NCBI GenBank assembly: GCA_951406725.2 | Contig: OX597834.1 | Coordinates: 4,712,001 to 4,776,000, forward strand | Direction: 5' to 3' | DNA from: Octopus vulgaris | Taxonomy: Eukaryota | Length of the DNA stretch: 64,000 bases | In this document: positions 9,047 through 42,940 of the stretch, one piece after another | Numbering within the stretch: the stretch's first letter is position 1 | Layout of the letters: the number at the start of each line of letters is the position of its first letter | Made by a program: the position numbers and the translations under genes | The notes under the pieces: generated by a model | Database searches by the model: none | What the model was told of the DNA's origin: nothing | What the model saw: the letters and a program-made list of their open reading frames with translations, nothing else

Positions 9047-9595
9047 ATAATTACTACGTTTTGAAAACATTTTCACATAGTTGGAGGGAGTGCTATGAGT
9101 ACAAAGATGGTAAAATTTATAGTTCCAGTAGTAGATTAACCAGCCAAAAAGGGTCGAGTCAGAACGTATGGCGCGGTAGAGCAGGGAAGAGTTGAGTGAC
9201 GAAGGAAAAATGGTCGGAAGAGGGGAAGACGGATCTCCCGAGGCAGTATAGAGAAGAGAAAAAGAAGTAAGGAGAATCGAACAAAGCGATACGAAAAGGA
9301 GGTAAGGAGGTTCGAACTATGACAAGTGCATGTATGTCTGTGTGTGTTTATGTGTGTTGTAGGCGTGCGTGTGTGTTTGTGTAGCCGCGTGCAGAGGTTT
9401 AAGCTACGAATTCGGAACCGTAAAAGAGGTTCTCAGAGCGTTTGTCAAGCAGAACGGTGGTGGCGGGTTAAGTGGAAGGCGTGTGAGTGTGTTGGAAAAC
9501 GCATGCGTGCGATTGTATATACGCGCGTGTGTGTGTGTGTGCCTGATGTGCATTCTTGTGCAGGTGTTGGTGTTAGTGAATATATGCGAGTGTTA

Positions 9596-10916
9596 AAGGC
9601 GGCGCGCCGGGCGAGATGCTTAGCGGTATTTCGTCTGCCGTTACGTTCTGAGTTCAAATTCCGCCGAGGTCGACTTTGCCTTTCATCCTTTCGGGGTCGA
9701 TAAATTAAGTACCAGTTACGCACTGGGGTCGATGTAATCGACTTAATCCATTTGTCTGTCCTTGTTTGTCCCCTCTGTGTTTAGCCCCTTGTGGGTAATA
9801 AAGAAATAGGTATTTCGTCTGCCGTTACGTTCTGAGTTCAAATTCCGCTGAGGTCGACTTTGCCTTTCATCCTTTCGGGTCGATAAATTAAGTACCAGTT
9901 ACGCACTGGGGTCGATGTAATCGACTTAATACCTATGTCTGTCCTTGTTTGTCCCCTCTGTGTTTAGCCCCTTGTGGGTAATAAAGAAATAGAAATAGGT
10001 ATTTCGTCTGCCGCTACGTTCTGAGTTCAAATTCCGCTGAGGTCGACTTTACCTTTCATCCTTTCGGGGTCGATAAATTAAGTACCAGTTACGCACTGGG
10101 GTCGATGTAATCGACTTAATACCTATGTCTGTCCTTGTTTGTCCCCTCTGTGTTTAGCCCTTGTGGGTAATAAAGAAATAGGTATTTCGTCTGCCGTTAC
10201 GTTCTGAGTTCAAATTCCGCCGAGGTCGACTTTGCCTTTCATCCTTTCGGGGTCGATAAATTAAGTACCAGTTACGCACTGGGGTCGATGTAATCGACTT
10301 AATACCTATGTCTGTCCTTGTTTGTCCCCTCTGTGTTTAGCCCCTTGTGGGTAATAAAGAAATAGGTATTTCGTCTGCCGTTACGTTCTGAGTTCAAATT
10401 CCGCCGAGGTCGACTTTGCCTTTCATCCTTTCGGGGGTCGATAAATTAAGTACCAGTTACGCACTGGGGCCGATGTAATCGACTTAATACCTATGTCTGT
10501 CCTTGTTTGTCCCCTCTGTGTTTAGCCCCTTGTGGGTAATAAAGAAATAGGTATTTCGTCTGCCGTTACGTTCTGAGTTCAAATTCCGCTGAGGTCGACT
10601 TTGCCTTTCATCCTTTCGGGGTCGATAAATTAAGTACCAGTTACGTACTGGGGTCGATGTAATCGACTTAATACCTATGTCTGTCCTTGTTTGTCCCCTC
10701 TGTGTTTAGCCCCTTGTGGGTAATAAAGAAATAGGTATTTCGTCTGCCGTTACGTTCTGAGTTCAAATTCCGCTGAGGTCGACTTTGCCTTTCATCCTTT
10801 CGGGATCAATAAATTAAGTACCAGTTACACACTGGGGTCGATGTAATGGACTTAATCCATTTGTCTGTCCTTGTTTGTCCCCTCTATGTTTAGCCCCTTG
10901 TGGGCAATAAAGAAAT
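9596..10916 (+). mobile_element. SINE family B concatemer: one head plus seven ~184-bp units
   Basis: Units start at GGTATTTCGTCT at 9625, 9809, 9998, 10181, 10365, 10550 and 10734, each with B-box GAGTTCAAATTCC. A 16-bp TSD ATATATGCGAGTGTTA lies at 9580-9595 and 10917-10932. Confidence 0.95.
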
Positions 10917-11145
10917 ATATATGCGAGTGTTAGTGAAAGACAAAATGTGAATTTGAGACACTAAACTCTAAAGAAATAGCTAATATATACTTCAAAAGTA
11001 GAAATGAAACTCAGGTAATATTTTTTCTCAATGGAAGTATAACATGTGTATGGACACATGTGGTGAAAACTGAAAATATAGTCGCTCCATAATAATACAA
11101 TGATTTTCAATATTAGTTTCAGGAAAAGGCGGTGAGGTGACAGAA

Positions 11146-11335
11146 ATGCTTGCTCGCCGTGCAAAATGCTTTATAGCATTTCGTCCATCTTTGCGTTCTG
11201 AGTTCGAATTCTTCTGAGGTCGACTTTGCCTTTCATCTTTTCGTGGATCAATAAAATTGCAGTTGAGTACAGGAATCGATGTTACCGACTTATCCCCTCC
11301 CCCAAATTGCTGGCCTTGTGACAAACTTTGAAATT
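11146..11335 (+). mobile_element. SINE family B, older subfamily with alternative tail
   Basis: Diverged head and central GAGGTCGACTTTGCCTTTCATC domain, with tail ...CCCCAAATTGCTGGCCTTGTG instead of the GAAATA tail. Confidence 0.8.
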
Positions 11336-13812: not shown

Positions 13813-13851
13813 CATGTGTGTGTGTGTGTGTGTGTGTGTGTCTGCATATAT

Positions 13852-14084
13852 ATTTCTTTACTACATACAAGGGGCTAAACACAGAGGGGACAAACAAGGA
13901 CAGACAAACGGATTAAGTCGATTAGATCAACCCTAGTGCGTAACTGGTACTTAATTTATCGACCCCGAAAGGATGAAAGGCAAAATCGACCTCGGCGGAA
14001 TTTTGAACTCAGAACGTAACGGCAGGCGAAATACGGCTACGCATTTCGCGCTGCGTGCTAACGTTTCTGCCAGCTCGCCGCCTT
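13852..14084 (-). mobile_element. SINE family B monomer (GAAATA tail)
   Basis: Full head plus one unit on the minus strand, flanked by TGTGTGT(C/G)TGCATATAT direct repeats. Confidence 0.9.
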
Positions 14085-14149
14085 GTGTGTGTGCATATAT
14101 GTATGCATACACATACACGAAACTCACTCACATACACACATATATTATG

Positions 14150-19134: not shown

Positions 19135-19545
19135 TTGGTCTCAAATTTTGGTAAAGGGACAGCAATCTCATGGGAAGAGGTAAATCGATTGTGTTGACCC
19201 CAGAACTCAACTGGTACTTATTTTATAGACACCGAAAAGATGAAAGGCAAAGTCGACCTCGGCAGAATTTGAGCTCAGAACGTCAAGTCAGACGAAATGC
19301 TGATACGCGTTTTAGCCGATGTGCCAGCGATTTCAGAGCCGGCAGAATCGTTAGCACGTCGGGGCAAAATGTTTAATGACGTTTCGTCCGTCCTTAAATT
19401 CTCAGTTTAAATTTCGTTGAGGTCCACTTTGCCTTTCATCTTTTCGGGGGTTGTTAAAATAAGTACCAGTTGAGCAATGAGCTCGACATGATCGGCTTAC
19501 CCCTTGTCCGAAATTGCTTGCATAGTGCAAAATTTGATACCAATA
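19135..19545. mobile_element. Two old SINE B copies (alternative tail) arranged head-to-head
   Basis: Minus copy at ~19135-19335 (GATGAAAGGCAAAGTCGACCTCGGC) and plus copy at ~19336-19545 (GAGGTCCACTTTGCCTTTCATC). Confidence 0.75.
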
Positions 19546-19586: not shown

Positions 19587-19967
19587 AAGGCGGCGAGCTG
19601 GCAGACTCGTTAGCGCGCTGGACAAAATGTTTAGCGGTATTTCGTCTGCCGCTACGTTCTAACCCCGAAAGGATGAAAGGCAAAGTCGACCTCGGCGGAA
19701 TTTGAGCTCAGAACGTAACGGCAGACGAAATACCTATTTCTTTACTACCCACAAGGGGCTAAACACAGAGAGGACAAACAAGGACAGATAAACAGATTAA
19801 GTCGATTGTATCGACCCCAGTGCGTAACTGATACTTAATTTATCGACCTCGAAAGGATGAAAGGCAAAGTCGACCTCGGCGGAATTTGAACTCAGAACGT
19901 AACGGCAGACGAAATACCGCTCAGCATTTCGCGCGGCGTGCTAACGATTCTGCCAGCTCGCCGCCTT
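19587..19967. mobile_element. Rearranged SINE B: plus-strand head fused to a minus-strand head + unit + partial unit
   Basis: AAGGCGGCGAGCTGGCAG at 19587 and its reverse complement ending at 19967. The internal junction GACGAAATACC|TATTTC at ~19735 is identical to that of the other concatemers. Confidence 0.85.
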
Positions 19968-21276: not shown

Positions 21277-21469
21277 ATATTGTAATGTATTATAGAATAT
21301 ATCTATAGATGTGTTTGCTAACACTGTTTTACGACAAATGTAAATGGTGGGTTCATGGGGTTGAAAAGAAAAGCGGCAGACGCTGAAGACATATTTTGAT
21401 TCTTATTAGAATATTTATCACCAACTGTGCACCCCACTTAACTATCTGCGAACAAGTGCTTCTACACCA

Positions 21470-21504
21470 ATTTCTTTACTGCCCACCGGGGGCCAAATAT
21501 AGAA
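21470..21504 (-). mobile_element. 35-bp 5'-truncated insertion of a SINE B-type 3' tail
   Basis: Matches TATTTCTTTACTACCCACAAGGGGCTAAACATAGA and is flanked by a 16-bp TSD AAGTGCTTCTACACCA at 21454-21469 and 21505-21520. Confidence 0.8.
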
Positions 21505-22415: not shown

Positions 22416-23873
22416 CTATGACATCTTACTGGACCGTACAGTAGCCATTACCTTCTGTTTTTTTTTTAATGATAGTTTGTTTATTAAACGTAGCACAAAA
22501 ACCAACAGGAGCGAGTATCCGTTGGCTCTTCAAAATTGTTAGTCTACCGTAGAATAAATATTAGGATAATTGTCAAATTAATGAACGTTTTTTTCATACG
22601 CTTACCTATTTTTAGGAAGGTTCCAATCGATATTCAAGGAAGATTTCAATCAATATTATTTCCAGTCTACTTCAGATAGTATTCCTGTTCCAGGGCTGAA
22701 ACTGAACTTGGAAGAGACATCACTATGTACTTGAAACTAAAGAAAATGTCTAAATAAAGTAGGTACCGTCAAGCTTATTTAGCGTAAATATACTAGCTGA
22801 ACATGAAGTTTGTAAGACGAAGTGCAGCGACATGTACATTTATAGTTGCGAAAATAACCACAGACAGATGTGCGTGGATCTTGTATTTAACAACGGTAGT
22901 CATGTCTGTATTTCATAACCGTATAGCGAAATGAACAAAGCCATAGAAAAGTTATTGCTTCTATATGACAGAAAGTTATGAATTCGGTTAAAAATATATA
23001 TCGCTTCCGGAGATCCAAAAATATCAAACAATGTCGATCTCTAAACACACCAGAAATGCATTTCAAAAGCCATCTGACATTTTCAATATTACTACTGAAA
23101 AACAACGCAGTCAAAAACATAGATAAGTCTATTAATAACATCAACTGAAATATATTTTCATGGTTTTATTAACGTTTAGCAACCTACCTACTCTTGTCAC
23201 AATTTGGCGTCTGCATATATGTAGTATCCTATATAAATAACGATGTGCGTAAAAAGCTAGTGCATTTATATATACAAGTACACGCTAGTGTGTATATATA
23301 TATATATATATATATACTTATGTATTTGTATGTATGTATGTATGTATGTATGTATGTATGTATGTATGTATGTATGTATGTGTATGTAGGTACATATGTG
23401 CATACATATAAACAAGCAGGTATTCATACAAGTACCCGCCTATTGTCACGAATGTATTGCAAGAGTAAGCACAACTTGTTTATTTTATAGACATAAGTTG
23501 TTCAAATCGCATATTGTGGGTAAAATAAGTTTTCTCAACTCGAGTCTCTATCAGAAGCAATCGATTTGTCCCATCATTGAACTAATCTCGTCAATCAGTT
23601 TTGAAAAAGGGAATTCAGTTGTGTACCGAATTACACAATTCTTCAGAGTTTTTTTTTTTTCGCGTCGTCTGCTATAATATCATTTTTCCCGAAGGTTGAC
23701 CATCAGGAGACCTAAAATGTGAACTAATATTTCAAATGAAAAACAATATTTCGGTAATGCTCATGATGAAATAACTAGCTCAACGAAATCAACATTATGT
23801 ATGTAATATATATATATACCGCCAGCGATTTTTTTCCTCTGTCTTTCCTTCTCGGGATCTTCCCTTCTCCTAT

Positions 23874-23908
23874 GTTTCCGACGAAGAGCTCCGCTCGAAA
23901 CGTTAAAC
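23874..23908 (+). ncRNA. Minimal type I hammerhead ribozyme motif (U4C core variant)
   Basis: GTTT-CCGACGA-A-GAGC-TCC-GCTC-GAA-ACGT-T-AAAC. Stem I is GTTT/AAAC, stem II is GAGC/GCTC, stem III is the palindrome ACGT, and the putative cleavage triplet is GUU. Confidence 0.65.
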
Positions 23909-24074
23909 CCTCCTTCTTCCCTTCTTTCCTGAGCATCCAATAATACTTTATTTGTTCCACGTCCTCGCGTTGCTGTGTTTTTTGTTTTTTTGTTTTTTGT
24001 GTTTTCTTGTTTGGATTAACTATATATAGTTTTTTTCCTCTGTCTTCCCTTCTCGGGATCTTTCCTTCTCCTAT

Positions 24075-24109
24075 GTTTCCGACGAAGAGCTCCACTCGAA
24101 ACGTTAAAT
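24075..24109 (+). ncRNA. Second minimal type I hammerhead motif
   Basis: GTTT-CCGACGA-A-GAGC-TCC-ACTC-GAA-ACGT-T-AAAT. It has one stem II mismatch next to the loop and a G-U pair in stem I. Confidence 0.55.
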
Positions 24110-24207
24110 CCTCCTTCTTCCCTTCTTTCCTGAGCGTCCAATAATACTTTATTTGTTCCACGTCCTCGCGTTGCTGTGTTTTTTTTTTTGTGTTTTCTTG
24201 TTTGGAT

Positions 24208-24454: not shown

Positions 24455-24511
24455 CACATATATATAATGTAGGCACATTAAAAGGGTTTGTTTTGTTATT
24501 GTTTTATGAAA

Positions 24512-24799
24512 TAAGGTACGAGTGCTCAAATATGTTGACTATACATCGCTATGACGGGTATCTCAGATTTGTATTGGCAGCTCATTTTATATTTCTGGTA
24601 TCGTTCTGTTGCTTTATCGAATAGTTTTCTCTTTTGTTTATTTCCATTATTATGTAACATAAGGTTTGAGTGCTCAAATATGTTGACTATACATCGCTAT
24701 GACGGGTATCTCAGATTTGTATTGGCAGCTCATTTTATATTTCTGGTATCGTTCTGTTGCTTTATCGAATAGTTTTCTCTTTTGTTTATTTCCATTATT
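24512..24799 (+). repeat. Near-perfect tandem duplication (~148-bp period)
   Basis: GAGTGCTCAAATATGTTGACTATACATCGCTATGACGGG...TTTCCATTATT occurs twice. Confidence 0.9.
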
Positions 24800-25731
24800 T
24801 GTACATGGTTTGGTTCGTTCTATTCCTTTTCATAAAGTTCGTTTATTTATCATATATTAGCAACAGTTTAAACACGTTCAGTACTTCATATTGATATGAA
24901 GTTTCTACTTACACAAGTGTAATTCCCATTCTCGATCCCAAACTGCACATTGTACTGACGATAATGGGGCATTATGATATGGAAAATTTACCTCCCGCTT
25001 TTTTTTTTGCTTTGTTTTGGACAATCTGACAATCTGGCTTTAGTGCTAGCTTAACGAATACAGAAATAGGATGTAAGCATTTTTCGACCATTACTCGTAT
25101 GATAGAACAGAGTTTCACTCGTTAGTAATACAAAGAGACTGGTGTATGATCACATAAGCCTCCACGGGTTTGTATTGTTGTTTGTGATTCTTGTAGTTTG
25201 GTCGTATATTGTATATTGTACAGCATTCAGTTTCTGCTCAGTTAATTCATTTAGTTTGCTTACGTAATCTTTATTTACTTGATTCCCAGTATATGCTATG
25301 GAAAACATGCTTTATAAATAAGAATGACAGTTGCTGCAGATAATCCATAAAAGTTCCGAACACTCTCTGTTCCAGTTGGGTTTAATATCTAATTAATTCG
25401 ATAATTTGTTCAACTTTTACGAAATAAAGTTATTGGTTTCGAAATTGCTTCTCCGAAATGGCGTTCGAAAATAAGACAGCTCAGACAAAGACAAAAACAA
25501 CAAAATCAACAAGGAGTAACAATAACGACAACGATAACTACAATCTGCTACAGAACCTCGTCTAGCCAGAGTCAAAAAGCAACAACACTGTTACAGTGAC
25601 TACAGAAGGTAGCCGCAAGAACAAACGGAACAACGATAATAATTGTCATAAGCGATAATGATAATGGCAATATTTCGTTTTTGGATTTGATTTGCAAGAT
25701 TCTTTATATGAGTTCGTGTGTTGAAGTATAT

Positions 25732-26099: not shown

Positions 26100-27390
26100 T
26101 GTATGCGGCTGTCCATGTGAAAGGTTCTGGAAATTAGTGCCACCACTGCTTTGCAGGGGCCGGTGTAACTCCTGTGTAAGTGTGAGTCCTACAGCCAGTT
26201 ACACAGGAAGAACTTGGCGTTCCCAAGCCTTGGCCGTCAACCAAGTTAGAGTTGGCGTTGTAAATGGGGTGTCCCGTTACCTGAATATCTCAACTAGACA
26301 CATTTGAGGAACAAACCCTAATCACTTGTTCAATCCGGCGATGATAACTAATACCTATTCAAATAACGGCGTGAACAGGAAGATTCACCTAAGTGTCTAA
26401 GACACTGGAGCTCCCGCGCCCGACAAAGCTCGCTCAGAGGGCAATGAAGTGGTAGATCAGACTCCGCCCGGTCGTGTTCCTTTTACTGTTCAAATATGCA
26501 ACGTGTTAGCAAACGCAAGTGGTCGATCGATGTAAAAAAAAAGCCATTAGGTGTCGTGTACAAGCCTTGCTAGACAAAGGCAATGGTAAAAAGAGCACTT
26601 GAACTTTAAAGCCAGCTAAGTACGTTCCAGATTAGTGAAAATGGGCTCATGAATCTTATAAGAACGATTCGGAACAGAGGCGTTCTTTATGAAACCCGAA
26701 TTCAGACAATCAGAGAGAGCCTCTGTAGTGATGATAACTTCGAGCAGGATAATATAAGGCGGCGAGCTGGCAGAAACGTTAGCACGCCGGGCGAAATGCT
26801 TAGCGTTATTTCGTCTGCCGTTACGTTCTGAGTTCAAATTCCGCCGAGGTCGACTTTGCCTTTCATCCTTTCGGGGTCGATAAATTAAGTACCAATTACT
26901 CACTGGGGTCGATGTAATCGACTCAGTACCTATGACTGTCCTTGTTTGTCCCCTCTGTGTTTAGCCCCTTATGGGTAATAAAGAAATAGGGATAATATAA
27001 GCGAAAATCAACGAGGTGAAGTTATTGCAGAGGAGAGGTAGTTGCGTGGTGAAATGGGAAGGATGCAGTATAATCTTGAGAACCAAGTATTATCATGGAT
27101 ATGACTGGGGATACGACTGGTATGACTGTGCTACTAGGATATGACTGAGGAACAAAGAGACCTAAACATAAGACGACTCAAAGAAATAATCAATACAAGA
27201 GCTGAGACCGAACCGGGGGATTTTGAACTGCTTCCACCGCGACAATGTGAAATGCGCGATTCAAAAGCTTCATAGAATCCTGAAGAATATTTCAAAGAAA
27301 GATCTAACAGAAACAAGGGACTTGTTTAGATCCACTTCAATTTCAGTTGGTGAATGGTTGGAAAAACATAGGAAATCAGGCAAACAGAAA
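26100..27390 (+). mobile_element. Possible 5' UTR and N-terminal ORF remnant of an R4/Dong-like LINE, interrupted by a SINE B
   Basis: A GC-richer structured leader is followed by KRKWS... and NLIRTIRNRGVLYETRIQTIR, recalling the N-terminal RxKW / 'IRTIxxxGxL' region of R4-clade ORFs. This is recalled similarity, not a search result. Confidence 0.4.
26756..26989 (+). mobile_element. SINE family B monomer (GAAATA tail)
   Basis: Full head plus one unit. TSD GGATAATATAAG at 26747-26758 and 26990-27001. Confidence 0.92.
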
Positions 27391-27771: not shown

Positions 27772-28564
27772 GGAGAATCGAAGTCGCATAGAAGAACACT
27801 ACAAAGGGTAGCGGAAAGAAACTAAAAAAGGTGTGAAGGCATATCTTGAAACGAAATGCCATATGAAATAGAAAGGGCTCAAAACCCGTTATTGAAATCC
27901 TAAAACAACCTATTCAAGCAAAAGTATTGAAGGTGAAACACTACACTGAACGCGTATCGCCGTTCCATCAAAATAGGCTATTCACAAACAACCAGAGGCA
28001 GGTTTTGAAGAGCTTGATATACCTCAAAAGATGATATACCTCATCAGCTGAGGAAACCCACCAATTTTGGAATAACGTCTGGGACCTGTAGTAATCAATT
28101 TACGCTGCGTGTCAAGCAGGGTAACCTCATTTCTTCAGGATTCTAGAGGCTCTCCTCGGAATGTTTTAATGTTTAGTGTTAGTGGTCAAACACTATGGAA
28201 ATAAAACATTCTACATGTAGGCAATTAGATATTTTATTCAATTTGAATTTCAGATTTTAAGTATATTACGAAAAGAACAAAAACTTTGTTTTCCCTGAAA
28301 TCAATTGTAATCAGCCGTAATCAAATACTAAAGACTAGCAGTAAATATAATGATTGTAATATGTGACTTGGAATCAAAATATAATTGGAAAATTGGTAAA
28401 ATATGTGTAAATACCGTAGTTTTCGAAATATTTATTCGTCATTCAAAAAATGCTGCGAAACAAAATAATTAATAGCTCAATATTTCATAATCATAATTTA
28501 TCGAAATGCCTACAGTATTTCTAAAATTTAATTTGTAAAGTTTAATTAACCGAGTTAAATATTG

Positions 28565-28680
28565 ATTCCAAATTTTGGCACAAGGCCAGCATGTTCGGGA
28601 GACTCTAGTGTTCAACTGGTACCTATTTTATCGACCGCGAAAGGATGACAGGAAAAGTTAATATTGGGCGGAATTTGCGA
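28565..28680 (-). mobile_element. Old SINE B fragment (alternative tail)
   Basis: AAATTTTGGCACAAGGCCAGCA...TTTTATCGACCGCGAAAGGATGA. Confidence 0.7.
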
Positions 28681-29114
28681 GCTCTCCGTCTTAACTGATT
28701 AAATGTTAGTTTTCCGAATGTACACAGAAGTGTATGTTCAATTGTAATACATACCCAAGCCATCTTTCCTTTATTCGCTTTTAAGGTTTGGGGAACTTTT
28801 GTGTCAGCTGTGTATGCTTATACTGGTGGTTGGTGTGGGGTAGGGGATGCAGAAGCAAACTGAAGGGACTGACCTAAGGGGAAGTGCTGGGGGTGGGACA
28901 AACAGTGTAAAACAAATAAACTTTGATAGAAGGCCTCTTCTAGCTTGATAACACTTTCACTTTTCTCCGTTAGCCACGTCAGATAGTTTCCTTGATTTTT
29001 CTGGATGTTCTTCAACGAGTACGTAAGATGTGTTCTCTTCATCGCAAACTGTTAGCCAGACGCTTGTGAATGAAGCTCAACAAGGTCTACTATTTCAGAT
29101 CCGTTAACGAAGCG

Positions 29115-31442: not shown

Positions 31443-32260
31443 CTTCCATTATATATGCACAAAAATAAACGCACGTATACATACACATGCATATATGTAT
31501 AAATATCTATTTCTCTAATTCTCTCCCTCTGCCTACCTACCTATCTATATATGATGTATGCATCATTAATTCCTTTGAGATGAGAGATAAGCTTGACACT
31601 TCTTATGCAATACATATTGTTGATTCCCTCCAAACATGACATGAAGATAAATCTAGTCTCTTAGTTCAGAAAAGTGAGAGACTTGTCTTGTCAGATTGAA
31701 AGATGTAAGAGTTCCAAAACTAAAGCTTGAAGAACTACTCCAGTCGAAATAGAAAACTATACTTATATTCATAAATAAAACTATTCAGAGAACGGCGTAT
31801 GTGCTTGTGCTGTAGTTGATATTTTTGTTCATAGTACAGATTACAACGGTGTTTATGCAGATATTGATGTCATTGATAAAAGGTAAATACACACAATTTG
31901 TAGTTCGCTGGTATTAGTATCCATGCAAGTTATTGAATAGTGTCCATGTCTGCTCTGGTTGTTTATCGTCGGAGTAATCCTGATTGGAGAAAACTATATA
32001 AAAATCGCCCTTGCTGAGATCTTTCCATTTCTTCCCGAGCATTGTATATCAAGACCAGTAAAATAAAGCACGCCCTTCATTCCTTAACATTGTGCTCGTT
32101 AAGTGTTGATTTCCTGCTGTTCATAGGTGATCTATCTGTCTGGTAAAAATCTGTGCCCTCATTAACATGGTTTTCGATGTATTATGTGCGTGTTTGTGGA
32201 AAAATATAGATGGTACCGATTTTAGGGATTAATCAAATGATATTGAGATCTTTTGAGATA

Positions 32261-32685
32261 AAAGGCGGCGAGCTGGCAGAAACGTTAGCGCGCTGGGCGA
32301 AATGCTTAGCGGTATTTCGTCTATCGTTATGTTCTGAGTTCAAATTCCGCTGAGGTCGACTTTGCCTTTCATCCTTTCGGGGTCGATAAATAAAGTACCA
32401 GTTATGCACTGGGGTCGATGTAATCGAATTAATCCCTTTGTCTGTCCTTGTTTGTCCTCTCCTGTGTTTAGCCCCTTGTGGGTAATAAAGAAATAGGTAT
32501 TTCGTCTATCGTTATGTTCTGAGTTCAAATTCCGCTGAGGTCGACTTTGCCTTTCATCCTTTCGGGGTCGATAAATAAAGTACCAGTTATGCACTGGGGT
32601 CGATGTAATCGACTTAATCCCTTTGTCTGTCCTTGTTTGTACTCTCTGTGTTTACCCCCTTGTGGGTAGTAAAGAAATAGAAATA
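32261..32685 (+). mobile_element. SINE family B dimer (head + 2 units)
   Basis: Junction AAGAAATA|GGTATTTCGTCT at ~32496. A 16-bp TSD GATATTGAGATCTTTT lies at 32239-32254 and 32686-32701. Confidence 0.93.
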
Positions 32686-33728
32686 GATATTGAGATCTTT
32701 TCTGTTTGGATTCACATTTAAAAATTTTAAAATTAACTGAAAATCTTTTTCATTTGGCATATTGATGTAATTTTTTACGCTGAATCTGATGTTATTCACT
32801 TGTTTCAAAAATAGTTTAGAAACATCTAACAGAGGTTTAAAGTTTCATCATTTTCACCCAATGAGAAGACAGGATTCAGAAGCTGGCGTTTTGTAATGGA
32901 CAACATTACGATGACACGTGACAACATTTAAAGACCAAAGTTTTAATAAGTTTTAACAAATAAAGTAATGTGAAACCTTGGAATAGGCATGCAATGCGAA
33001 CACTAGTCGAATGTTAAATTACGGAAACAAAAAAGAAACAAAACAAACTGTAGTTAAATTCATAACGATTGAACTGCTGGAGAAGGCAGCCAATTCTCCT
33101 CCCGAAAAAACAACCTAACGTTATGAAACGAGGAAGGACATACTAGATTATGGTACTCTTAGACAGCTCTAAAGCTGTGGGGCATTCAGCATTAGAATGT
33201 TCCGTTTGATCATAGGGCTACTCGGTCAACTACATCCTCTTTGGTTTTCAATTTCTTCATCATACACGACAGGGTATGCAGACCACACTGCAACTTGGCT
33301 TGTTATTACAAAAACAGGCACCAGTATGTCTGTGGCTTTCGACTGGCTAAAATGACTCCAAATTTGCAAACTTAAAAGGCTATTAACTTTCTGTATTTAT
33401 TAATTTAAGGCAAAAATAAATTCAGTTCCATAATAAGCATACAAAACTACATCAATACACCAAGTTTGAAATCAACAGAAGGAATTGAAAAGTAGAGGCC
33501 AAACAGAAAAGATCCTGATATTGTTCTACTATCAGGAATGGTAACCTATTTGCCTTAATTCGTCTACTTCATCCGTTTCTGGAAGATATATATTTAGTTG
33601 TAATTTTCAATTGATCATAGCCTTTTTGAACTTTTAAAATAAGTCCGTTTAAAATATTATCGCTTAATTTTCTTTATGAAGCTCAATTTAAGTAACGATT
33701 TTTAATTTAGTAATATTTCAACTTGAAA

Positions 33729-33948
33729 AAGGCGGCGGCGACTTTGCAGAACCGTTAACGTGCGGGGCAAAATGCTTGGTGGCATTTCGTCAGTCTTTAC
33801 GTTCTGAGTTCAAATTCCACCAAGGTCGACTTTTTCCTTTAATCCTTTCGGGGTCGATAGAATAAGTACCAGTTGATAACGGGAGGGGGTATGTAAATGA
33901 CATACTTCACCCAAAATACTGGTCTTGAACCAAAGTTTGAGATCAATA
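33729..33948 (+). mobile_element. Old SINE B (alternative tail)
   Basis: AAGGCGGCG head, GAGTTCAAATTCC B-box and CCTTTCGGGGTCGATAG central domain. Confidence 0.8.
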
Positions 33949-34519
33949 CTTTAACACGAAATCGTAAAATGAGCCATTCTTCCAAAATTAAAATAAACTC
34001 AGAGCGTATATTTGTTGTATTTAATTTTGATATAAAAGTATTCTCTAAATTTCTTATTTCCTGAAATTCCTTAAAACTGTGATTAAAGTATTAATCTGAA
34101 TTGAATGCCTATCATTAAAATTTTATTCTTGAAGACTTAAATCACGGTTTCTGATATAACTTCTATCGAAATCGTATAATTCTGTGTTATTTTTAAGGAT
34201 TCGGATTATAATCAATGCTTCAATGCAACTAACTCTGCATTGGGAAATTCATACCAGTCGTGATATTCTTCGTTTCATTGATATTTGACTTAGAATAAAA
34301 TGGATAGCGATTAATAAAGTGTCTCTAAAGATTACAGTAGAGATTCATTTCATTTCTTTTCAATAGTTTCAAATATCTGACATTACATTACATACTGAAT
34401 ACGTAACTTCAAAGACCTCAATTATTATAGTATCTAAGGGACGGATCAGAATAAAGAATTTATACAAATCTCAACCAGCAAGTAAAGTGAGTTTATATTA
34501 AGTAATAGTGATAATAATA

Positions 34520-34733
34520 ATGGTTTCAGACTTTGGCACAAGGCCAGCAAGTTCGGCGCGTGGGATAAATCAGTTAGATTGATCGGAGTGTTTAATTCAT
34601 ACTTATTTTATCGACCTGAAAGGATGAAAGGCAAAGTCGGCCTCGGCGGAGTTTGAATTTGAACGTAAAGACGAATGAAATTCCACTAAGCATTTTGCTG
34701 AGTATGCTAACCATTCTGCCGGTTCACCGCCTT
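34520..34733 (-). mobile_element. Old SINE B (alternative tail)
   Basis: TTTGGCACAAGGCCAGCAA...AGGATGAAAGGCAAAGTCGGCCTCGGCGGA...CCGCCTT. Confidence 0.8.
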
Positions 34734-39000: not shown

Positions 39001-39514
39001 AAATTAATTTTCATTTCTGCAAACATAAATATTTCTCTAAAATCTTGCTCAAATTTTAGTTTTAGTACTATACAAAATTAATTTTGCATTTTGTCTCTAA
39101 AACAACCAAAACGTTCATTAACTGTTTTAAATAGAAAAACAGAAAAATGATAATTATTTGAAACTTTGGAAAATACGAATTTAAATTATTGCATGTTTTA
39201 AGTATTTTATTAGAGAAATTAATTTTTGTAAAGAATTAAATTTTCATTATATGATTTTTAAATTTATTTATTTTCTTATTTTAACCTATAATTACGTTTC
39301 TTTTAAATGAAAAGTAACATAATTATGTTCCTTATAATTATCTAATAATATTACAGACAAAAACTATACAGCTATTAAATTATTTGGCTGCTGTATTATT
39401 CTGCTTTTCATTTGTTCAAATTTCACGCGTTTCACAATGACTATAGAACGAAATCGAACGAATCGTTGAAATCATTAAAATAAACAAGTTCGATTAAAAA
39501 CACAAATATTTAGC

Positions 39515-39606
39515 ATCATCGACCCCAGTACTTGACTGGTACTTAATTTACCGACCCCGAAAGAATGAAAGGCGAAATAGACTTCGGCGGAATTTGAACT
39601 CAGATC
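39515..39606 (-). mobile_element. SINE B central-domain fragment
   Basis: ATCGACCCCAGT...GACCCCGAAAGAATGAAAGGC...GGCGGAATTTGAACTCAGA. Confidence 0.75.
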
Positions 39607-39730
39607 ATAGAAAGGATCAATAATAATCTCTGATATAATATACAATACAAAATTTAATTCCTTCCGTTACAATTAGAATGCAATGAATGCTCTCTGAACA
39701 ACAATTTTTTACGTTAGAGCGAGCCAGCTG

Positions 39731-40884
39731 CAACCACGACCACCACGACCACCACGATCACCACCACGACCACCACGACCGCCACGACCGCCACGACCGC
39801 CACTACCACCACCACCACCACGACCGCCACCACCACGACCACCACCACCACCACCACCACCACGACCGCCACGACCGCCACGACCGCCACTACCACCGCC
39901 ACCACCACGACCGCCACCACCACGACCACCACCACGACCACCACGACCGCCACGACCGCCACGACCGCCACTACCACCGCCACCACCACGACCGCCACCA
40001 CCACGACCACCACCACGACCACCACGACCGCCACGACCGCCACGACCGCCACAACCACCGCCACCACCACGACCGCCACCACCACGACCACCACGACCGC
40101 CACGACCGCCACGACCGCCACTACCACCGCCACCACCACGACCGCCACCACCACGACCACCACCACGACCACCACGACCGCCACGACCGCCACGACCGCC
40201 ACTACCACCACCACCACGACCGCCACCACCACGATCACCACCACGACCACCACGACCGCCACGACCGCCACGACCGCCACTACCACCGCCACCACCACGA
40301 CCGCCACCACCACGACCACCACGACCGCCACCACGACCACCACGACCACCACGACCGCCACGACCGTCACCACCACCGCCACCACCACGACCACCACGAC
40401 CACCACGACCACCACGACCACCACGACCGCCACGACCGTCACTACCACCGCCACCACCACGACCACCACAACCACCACGACCGCCACCACCGCCACGACC
40501 GTCACCACCACCGCCACCACCACGACCCCCACGACCACCAGGACCACCACGACCACCACGACCGCCACGACCGCCACCACGACCGCCACCACCACGACCA
40601 CCACGACCACCACGACCGCAACCACCGCCACCACCACCGCCACCACCACCGCTACCACCACCGCCACAACGCTACGACCGCCACCACCACCACAACCACC
40701 ACCACCACCACCACCGCTACCACCACGACCACCACGACCACCACGACCACCACGACTGCCACGACCGCCACCACCACCACCACAACCACCACGACCACCA
40801 CCACCACCACTATAATCATCATAAACATCATCAGCATCGCCAGCAGCAGCAGCATCACCAACAACACCGCCACTATCACTACCT

Positions 40885-41592: not shown

Positions 41593-41723
41593 CCAAATAA
41601 TGGTAGCCTACTGATGTATAGTAAACCAAGCGAATAGTCACCCAACTTTTAAAAAAATTATTGCAGACCAACATAACCCTTTTCACATTCACTTGTTTTC
41701 TCAATTGTTACTTGAAAGAAATT

Positions 41724-42292
41724 ATTTATTTCTTTATTGACCACAAGGGGCTAAACACGGAGAGGATAAGCAAGGACAGACAAACGGGTTAAGTCGATTA
41801 CATCGATCCCAGTGCGTAACTGGTAATTAATTTATCGACCCCGAAAGGATGAAAGGCAAAGTCAACCTCGGCGGAATTTGAACTCAGAACGTAACGGCAG
41901 ACGAAATACCTATTTCTTTACTACCCACAAGGGGCTAAACATAGAGGGGACAAACAAAGACAGGCAAACAGTGCGTATCTGGTACTTTATTTATCGACCC
42001 CGGCGGAATTTATCGACCTCGGCGGAATTTGAACTCAGAACGTAACGGCAGACGAAATACCTATTTCTTTATTACCCACAAGGGGCTAAACATAGAGGGG
42101 ACAAACATGGACAGACATAGGTATTAAGTCGATTATATCGACCTCAGTGCGTAACTGGTACTTATTTAATCGACCCAGAAAGGATGAAAGGCAAAGTCGA
42201 CCACCGCGGAATTTGAACTCAGAACGTAACGGCAGACGAAATACCGCTAAGCATTTCGCCCGACGTGCTAACGTTTCTGCCAGCTCGCCGCT
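41724..42292 (-). mobile_element. SINE family B trimer (head + 3 units, middle unit internally rearranged)
   Basis: Junctions GACGAAATACC|TATTTC at ~41910 and ~42061. TSD TTACT(T/A)GAAAGAAATT at 41708-41723 and 42293-42308. Confidence 0.92.
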
Positions 42293-42940
42293 TTACTAGA
42301 AAGAAATTTTGAGTACTCGAACAGTGACGACAGAACGTTCCCAGATATAACCTCTGCACTGGAAAATAGGCTATTCGAGCTCCCTTGCTAGGGGTAATAT
42401 TGGTTGTATTCGAACGATGAAGTCAGGCGTTAGTCAGAATTATCTAAAAATTCATAACAACTGTTCGACAAAAACTTATAAATCTGCACTGCACAAACAT
42501 ATAACAAGCTTGCGTATGTTTAACAATAATCAACATAAATATATAGCAATTAACTGTACAATTCATTCCCTATAACACCATATAAATTATAGCAACTGAC
42601 ACAACCTATTCTACCTAATCTAAATGAAATAATAAACATTCTACTCAATCACTCGTAATGCGATAAAACAGTAAATATTCTCACATAATCGATAACTGCC
42701 ACTAAACAACGTCTCTAACCATCATTATAATACAGCATTATGGATATATCATTGACACAATCACCGCATGACTATAAAATATATTAGCAGAAAAATGAGG
42801 GTAAACTCGCCTTAAGATAAAATATGGCAGATGATGAGTAAGGTTGAAGTACACGGAGACGGTGGAAATGTAACCCGTCTTTTAAAATTTCGAAATTTCA
42901 GCTACCTCCATCTAATGTTTTGATAACAGCGGAGATTATA

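Follow-up and report, generated by a model that had tools for sequence, protein, structure and literature searches.

Arrays of a SINE with one head and one fixed junction in a 64-kb window of the Octopus vulgaris genome

How can a SINE come to lie in a genome as one head followed by several copies of the rest of the element, always joined at the same place and enclosed by a single TSD? The question is raised by positions 9580-10932 of a 64,000-nucleotide stretch of Octopus vulgaris DNA (the whole stretch is called the window here), where a single pair of 16-bp TSDs encloses one SINE head with seven units, each about 184 bp long. A sequence-only reading had described this array within its single TSD, and the description holds: the TRF call at 9625-10917 gives a period of 184, 7.0 copies and 96% matches, and the TSD copies agree at 16/16 positions. 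The array is composed as follows.

9580..9595, + strand: left TSD of the seven-unit array, 16 bp, 16/16 match
9596..9624, + strand: SINE head, about 20 bp missing, including the A-box-like motif
9625..9808, + strand: unit 1, CCATT subtype, without any substitution that is private within the array
9809..10733, + strand: units 2-6, ACCTA subtype, 0-2 private substitutions per unit; unit 2 ends in a doubled GAAATA
10734..10917, + strand: unit 7, CCATT subtype, 6 of the 10 private substitutions of the array
10917..10932, + strand: right TSD, 16/16 versus the left TSD

Because its head has lost the A-box-like motif, the seven-unit locus is probably not itself a source copy. Three single-base homopolymer indels within the array may be assembly errors.

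A BLAST search of the window with head plus unit as the query gave 26 matches. Those of the young family are the seven-unit array, a dimer, a trimer, two monomers, and a dimer cut off beside an inverted neighbour; the others are a short related tail and older relatives. The young family occupies seven loci in the 64 kb, and its principal copies besides the long array are these.

32239..32701, + strand: dimer, TSDs 32239-32254 and 32686-32701, 16/16 match
32262-32310, 32311-32495 and 32496-32679, + strand: intact head and two units of the dimer, with a doubled GAAATA before the right TSD
41708..42308, − strand: trimer, intact head, TSD 15/16
42245-42062, 42061-41911 and 41910-41727, − strand: units of the trimer, namely ACCTA, a rearranged unit of 151 bp, and CCGTT
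19662..19967, − strand: partial dimer, head, one unit and 73 nt of a second unit
26747..27001, + strand: monomer with a mutated ACCTA variant (copy at 26756), TSD 12/12
13835..14100, − strand: monomer with a G-C closing pair in the head (copy at 13851), TSD 16/17; its unit starts with C

The feature is real and frequent. Arrays make up 4 of the 6 young copies in the window with a readable first tail, and among the 15 young-family tails ten are followed by another unit and five are terminal; all ten inner tails reach GAAATA, the same as the five terminal ones. The head comes first in 4/4 arrays and 2/2 monomers, and no headless copy of the young family was seen among the 26 matches. TSDs of 12-17 bp bound five loci (the seven-unit array, the dimer, the trimer and the two monomers), which bears out the earlier statements that the dimer and the trimer each lie within one TSD of about 16 bp and that monomers exist.

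Other parts of that reading needed correction. The head it ascribed to each array is intact in the dimer, the trimer and the partial dimer, but in the seven-unit array it is shortened as listed above. The units are regular at about 184 bp, except that the second unit of the trimer is rearranged, one internal GAAATA is doubled and 7 nt of filler separate the left TSD of the dimer from its head. What had been called a partial dimer does have a head, a unit and the junction, but it ends abruptly against an inverted second copy (19587-19660, + strand), so that its unit number is only a minimum; no TSD was seen by eye for 19662-19967. The whole of 19587-19967, two inverted young copies with the intervening sequence missing, is likely the product of a deletion between inverted repeats. 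A TTTT run, said to be lacking, is indeed absent inside the loci at 9596, 32262, 41724, 26756 and 19661 but present inside the monomer at 13851. Since the dimer, the trimer and the partial dimer combine an intact A-box-like motif with the absence of such a run, they could be source copies.

Older relatives, all single copies, are located at 11126-11330, 28500-28700, 33729-33950, 34500-34733, 39500-39610 and 57630-57750; they have the head and centre in common with the young family, and most have a different tail. Two older-family copies at 19181-19499 stand head to head with overlapping heads, and opposite-strand joints near the head start also repeat in three DNA runs (X2, X6 and X3, introduced below); both arrangements may reflect snap-back copying. 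At 21469-21503 (− strand) a 35-nt insertion similar to the family tail has an exact 16-bp TSD on both sides; it may represent the 3' end of a sister SINE or of the LINE partner. Three other repeats were recorded in the window. A 201-bp tandem of 1.9 copies at 23829-24201 lies in a TA microsatellite and includes a stretch resembling a minimal hammerhead core of the kind found in Penelope-like elements; this region has no hammerhead match in Rfam. The 148-bp tandem duplication at 24504-24803 (96% matches) is not SINE-related by eye, and the repeat of 9-bp period at 39733-40810 (about 120 copies, open in several frames) is probably a simple satellite.

According to the section of the SINEBase description used here, a SINE is an interspersed, non-tandem repeat of at least 100 copies and less than 1 kb, with a head at least 60% identical to tRNA, Pol III transcription and a partner LINE (PMC3531059). 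The octopus family has at least 100 copies, and its 233-bp monomers fit the size and non-tandem limits, whereas the 1322-bp seven-unit array does not. As to tRNA identity, ARAGORN found 0 genes and Rfam gave no match; A-box-like and B-box-like motifs were found by pattern search. TSDs of variable length and a simple-repeat 3' end (GAAATA, doubled at the dimer) place the family among non-LTR retroposons. The central stretch of the unit appears to resemble the Meta domain. In the MetaSINE superfamily, as characterised in the part of the source consulted, this 66-bp domain lies right after the head (PMC4824008). No motif match was found in the supplementary files searched, and neither the family sequence nor a partner LINE tail was found in the searched parts of supplements that include those of PMC9115989, PMC4824008 and PMC4758252.

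The family is present in Octopus: 3 of 27 candidate proteins match the translated head (93% for Octopus vulgaris, 83-88% for O. bimaculoides), apparently as gene models that extend into the repeat. Four public runs (X2, X6, X3 and X11) were used as contigs, which were aligned to a monomer reference, 26640-27120; two of the four runs are possible sources of the window and so not independent, X11 is only guessed to be RNA, contig depth does not equal copy number and some joints went uncounted. Per DNA run, 262,523-482,261 contigs align to the one monomer, a count that includes the older relative family. The joint from tail to unit start (26990 to 26807) occurs in 21, 33, 23 and 5 contigs of the four runs; of the tail-to-head joints listed for X2, X6 and X3 (15 of 937 joints), none has better support; a variant two bases shorter occurs in 7, 9, 4 and 0 contigs. 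The loose ends that precede the unit start (868, 1513 and 748 records in X2, X6 and X3) are short, with a median of 15-21 nt, and carry the tail consensus; true 5' ends in the same runs have long unique flanks (median 255). A short-unit variant of about 100 bp (reference 26895 to 26807) uses the same junction and reaches a depth of 1757 in X2, where the unique flanks have a depth of about 17-26. Joints from 26894 or 26923 were set aside, as these are the places where the alignment of the older family and of other subtypes to the reference ends. Six RNA runs (X15-X20, with insect, invertebrate, wastewater, termite gut and organism D labels) contained 19-41% of the words, possibly through contamination, and were left out of the analysis. 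A pattern scan of viral contigs, metagenome contigs and prokaryote genomes found no further copies, and a protein search with the 73-aa frame spanning the junction gave no candidate.

The claim that all arrays use one fixed junction is upheld both by the contig joint from 26990 to 26807 and by the window itself. A 20-mer spanning the junction matches the window at 10 places, 9 of them exactly and 1 with a single mismatch, where 100 shuffles lead one to expect 0.00: six in the seven-unit array, one at 32488, two in the trimer (41899 and 42050) and one at 19723. All 10 use the same joint, and in 9 of the 10 cases the junction is invariant and free of filler bases; one junction, at unit 2 of the seven-unit array, has the doubled GAAATA also seen at the 3' end of the dimer, and this internal doubling looks like a fresh initiation of reverse transcription. 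The position at which the units begin can be related to a predicted structure of the head.

9608..9637, + strand: predicted 13-bp head hairpin (RNA fold), loop 9621-9624; the heads of the dimer and the trimer fold likewise

In the predicted fold the unit start (9625) is the first base of the hairpin 3' arm. The monomer at 13851 has G-C instead of U-G as the closing pair of this hairpin; in all four runs, each of the two single changes that make the G-C pair accounts for 15-20% of the depth summed over contigs, their linkage being seen in the 13851 monomer only. On its 5' side the junction has no microhomology, and in 6 of 7 stretches folding predicts no local hairpin that would span it. Because the unit starts at the hairpin 3' arm and 5'-side microhomology is lacking, we infer that the origin of the junction was guided by RNA structure at least once. 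The hairpin-boundary position does not show repeated origins, and the fixed junction alone is no evidence of a new mechanism.

Several other routes were rejected by inspection. Unequal recombination between TSDs would leave a TSD between units, and none is there; microhomology slippage at the GAAAT common to tail and head would place the junction about 7 nt further 5'; inspection revealed no donor/acceptor pair fitting back-splicing on either strand; and arrays of TRIM-type LTR elements are incompatible with the 12-17-bp TSDs and the lack of LTR-internal alternation. The sequence-only reading was also right to argue against random local duplication, which cannot explain the fixed junction; the arrays have the bounds of one retroposon. 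Its further step, from the recurrence of one junction to independent origins, is not supported, because an invariant junction is what a single founder, subsequently retroposed, predicts. The same argument was made for R2/U12 chimeras, for which the portion of the source used here reads identical junctions as one jump and recurrent jumps as variable (PMC3414825).

Substitutions among the units indicate that the arrays differ in their making. Two main subtypes are distinguished by three differing sites near unit position 124-128, CCGTT (or derivatives) versus ACCTA. The seven-unit array has the order CCATT, five ACCTA, CCATT; its units 2-6 differ at 1-4 sites and are near-identical, and unit 4 has no substitution beyond the ACCTA subtype. 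The last unit holds 6 of the 10 private substitutions (p=0.007), an excess that fits growth in place equally well. The trimer also mixes subtypes, and its units, with 18-22 differing sites (a count that for unit 2 is partly due to its rearranged stretch), are as distinct as units of different loci: units 1 and 3 differ at 22 sites, each unit carries 7-9 private substitutions and there is no sign of homogenisation. In the dimer, the two units have 7 substitutions in common versus the window majority, 3 of them at CpG sites, which means the same source or local duplication. Some arrays are therefore made of units that differ in origin, and in others a single source is repeated. With mixed subtypes inside two arrays and the shared changes of the dimer, neither one circle nor plain local duplication gives both.

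The ACCTA subtype has a further property. Through its three-base change it contains a stretch of 9 nt that is perfectly reverse-complementary to the junction.

10301..10309, + strand: 9-nt ACCTA variant of unit 4, exactly reverse-complementary to the 9-mer of the junction (10362-10370)

This 9-nt complement lies within a 16/22 match, other subtypes reaching 13/22 or less. A helix between ACCTA and the junction is predicted with a probability of 0.36-0.92 for the central pairs in 4/4 ACCTA junction stretches and of 0 in the 3/3 others, and in circular folding it is also predicted, at about 0.5-0.75. The computed duplex with the junction has -15.8 kcal/mol for ACCTA versus -5.4 to -6.2 for the other subtypes, and with the head context ACCTA gains almost nothing (-6.7 versus -6.0). 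Random three-base changes with this spacing seldom have such an effect: out of 4320, 13 produce a 9-nt complement anywhere in the circular unit, and in 4 it spans the junction, in a test chosen after the pattern had been seen. Only one of the three ACCTA changes is junction-specific, the other two also matching the head. The simplest reading is that ACCTA would be a templated change, or would have been selected, in a junction-bearing molecule. As the monomer at 26756 also carries the ACCTA variant, monomers can descend from multimers; this suggests that monomers derive from junction-bearing molecules, which are likely the sources.

We consider it about an even chance that headed, terminator-free multimers retropose whole, while homologous template switching and duplication in place vary the units. 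The founding junction would have formed once or a few times at the RNA level, by a cut or a reverse-transcriptase run-off at the loop of the head hairpin and then joining to a tail, and would have been inherited by multimeric source copies. Transcription by Pol III would begin at the head and continue across every unit; a LINE reverse transcriptase would prime at any tail and thus yield monomers, dimers and longer chains, all with a single head and a single TSD. If a cDNA stopped inside a unit, it could anneal again to any of the units in a different SINE RNA, with units added or mixed and the junction kept, and later duplication in place would alter the unit number and explain the shared changes. 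Multimeric sources need no extra assumption, because headed arrays with intact boxes and no TTTT run exist. The head on every array and monomer and the short loose ends with a tail consensus speak for this reading; the GAAATA doubling inside the long array and the excess of private substitutions in its last unit count against it. Homologous switching between SINE RNAs is reportedly known for Entamoeba EhSINE1. Of the three candidates named in the sequence-only reading, a multimeric master copy fits best, but the mosaic arrays require unit exchange to be added to it. It is a more tentative proposal, rather doubtful in our estimate, that the replicating form is a junction-bearing RNA rebuilt repeatedly through a loop-cut hairpin, chained or circularised fragments and pairing of the subtype helix with the junction.

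A recurrent origin of the junction at the RNA level would have SINE RNA cut in the loop and its 3' fragments chained behind other SINE RNAs by jumps of the reverse transcriptase or RNA ligation. The unit start at the boundary of loop and 3' arm in young copies speaks for this, as do the U-G to G-C closing pair of the 13851 monomer with its single changes at the depth given above, the junction free of 5'-side microhomology, the two mixed-subtype arrays and the one internal GAAATA doubling. There are precedents too: template jumping and head-to-tail copies are reported for R2 (PMC11371274, PMC3414825), and in the part of the preprint considered, U6/L1 chimeras are made by RNA ligation or switching and tRNA halves occur in L1 chimeras (bioRxiv 2025.02.02.635956). 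We nevertheless hold recurrent joining to be unlikely. It requires defined 3' ends at GAAAUA in a unit without a terminator, and it predicts headless TSD-flanked copies and tail-to-full-head joins, of which the 10 junctions here include none; repeated jumps are reported with variable junctions (PMC3414825, as far as the portion used extends), and the 7 shared changes of the dimer are not easily explained. Those shared changes, with 3 at CpG sites, and the 1-4 differing sites of units 2-6 would rather suit a purely DNA-level history, in which a founder dimer was retroposed and then altered in place by unequal exchange, slippage and ectopic gene conversion, as proposed for squamate satellites; unit number indeed varies between orthologous squamate arrays (PMC10702118, in the part consulted). 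The private substitutions of the trimer units, lacking any sign of homogenisation, and unit 4, which has no substitutions beyond ACCTA and so did not arise by duplication of an old copy at the locus such as unit 7, make this history very unlikely.

Growth in place by retro-insertion, where a nick in the head loop primes on an old unit and the 5' end of the cDNA is resolved by homology, would place the most diverged unit of the long array at its 3' end, next to inner units that look young, and would account for the head being always first. On that reading the unit start conceals the new TSD, and the old one remains on the outside. The trimer shows no such gradient, however, and six insertion sites have no clear common target motif by eye; we hold this reading to be very unlikely. 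Least probable of all is rolling-circle reverse transcription of a 184-nt circular RNA, a candidate of the sequence-only reading, here ended by a switch onto a headed RNA. The five near-identical inner units of the long array and the ACCTA helix predicted across the junction of the circle are compatible with it, but subtypes are mixed within arrays and the head on all four arrays demands an extra step. Neither a ribozyme nor a stable circle was found: Rfam gave no ribozyme match at E<=5, a pattern of the hammerhead core had no match on either strand, and the circular unit, with an MFE of -32.7 against a shuffle mean of -35.2 (z +0.65, +0.66 and +1.65), folds no better than shuffles.

SINE multimers are known from other animals, and the comparisons below refer to the parts of the cited papers used here. 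The closest case is the blood clam Scapharca broughtonii, with TSD-(SINE)n-TSD arrays of 4-15 units: it too is a mollusc SINE with one TSD per array and a full head on the first unit only, later copies being truncated at one head position (PMC11481361). The inner Scapharca units, however, lack the 3' tail end, as by internal duplication, whereas the octopus units all keep the full tail; arrays form about 3% of the Scapharca copies, as against 4/6 readable young copies in one octopus window; and its authors suggest recombination, the description used here containing no junction-complementary subtype (PMC11481361). The squamate satellites sSat1-3 resemble the octopus arrays in their tandem units of part of a SINE, their one longer terminal unit and their unit boundaries common across loci, at unit sizes of 70-290 nt (PMC10702118). 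They tend to be subtelomeric, can be long and homogenised and are ascribed to duplication at the DNA level, unlike the short, dispersed, TSD-bounded and often mosaic octopus arrays (PMC10702118). Homogenisation in the octopus is absent from the trimer; the five inner units of the long array are near-identical. Multimers of the Dip, B2 and Ves SINEs (the jerboa is among the hosts) are likewise head-to-tail, with up to eight units and nearly half of the Dip copies involved, but they consist of full-length units, in contrast to the head on the first octopus unit only, and their authors left the origin open (PMC8466645).

Beyond SINEs, R2 offers a non-LTR reverse transcriptase that joins templates end to end, with an identical junction read as one jump that spread, but R2 is a site-specific autonomous element or was studied with engineered templates, and the parts of these reports used here contain no SINE chain (PMC3414825, PMC11371274). 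Metazoan non-LTR retrozymes are similar in having tandem units of 150-300 nt, TSDs and a proposed multimeric cDNA from circles; they differ in the hammerhead of each unit and their stable circles, neither of which was found here, and in that the octopus arrays are headed (PMC7761336). SINE multimers are a known kind of arrangement, to which the octopus arrays add a unit start at a hairpin boundary and a junction-complementary subtype. No description of these octopus arrays was found in the open-access literature searched, where most matches were judged by title or the start of the abstract. The octopus tRNA-derived SINEs OK, OR1 and OR2 were reportedly described by Ohshima and Okada in 1994, and the family, perhaps with its arrays, may already be recorded in that paper, in Repbase or in the 2015 genome paper.

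Four features give grounds for a genome-wide count: mosaic arrays, inner units with full tails, the unit start at a hairpin boundary and the complementary subtype. The very large copy number together with subtype markers makes it possible to count frequent joining and switching by a non-LTR reverse transcriptase in vivo against rare founders. If the junction-bearing RNA were rebuilt repeatedly, a repeat that ranks with the most abundant in the octopus genome would have a ribozyme-free concatemer life cycle. If multimers are source elements, the number of copies in the retroposing unit of this SINE would vary, and SINEs and tandem repeats would be directly linked. SINEs account for 11.6% of the O. 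vulgaris assembly, and the SINE families active there in recent times are mostly unclassified, according to the part of the assembly report used here (PMC13282606); array structure, with multimers as source elements, would affect both the annotation and the dating of O. vulgaris SINEs.
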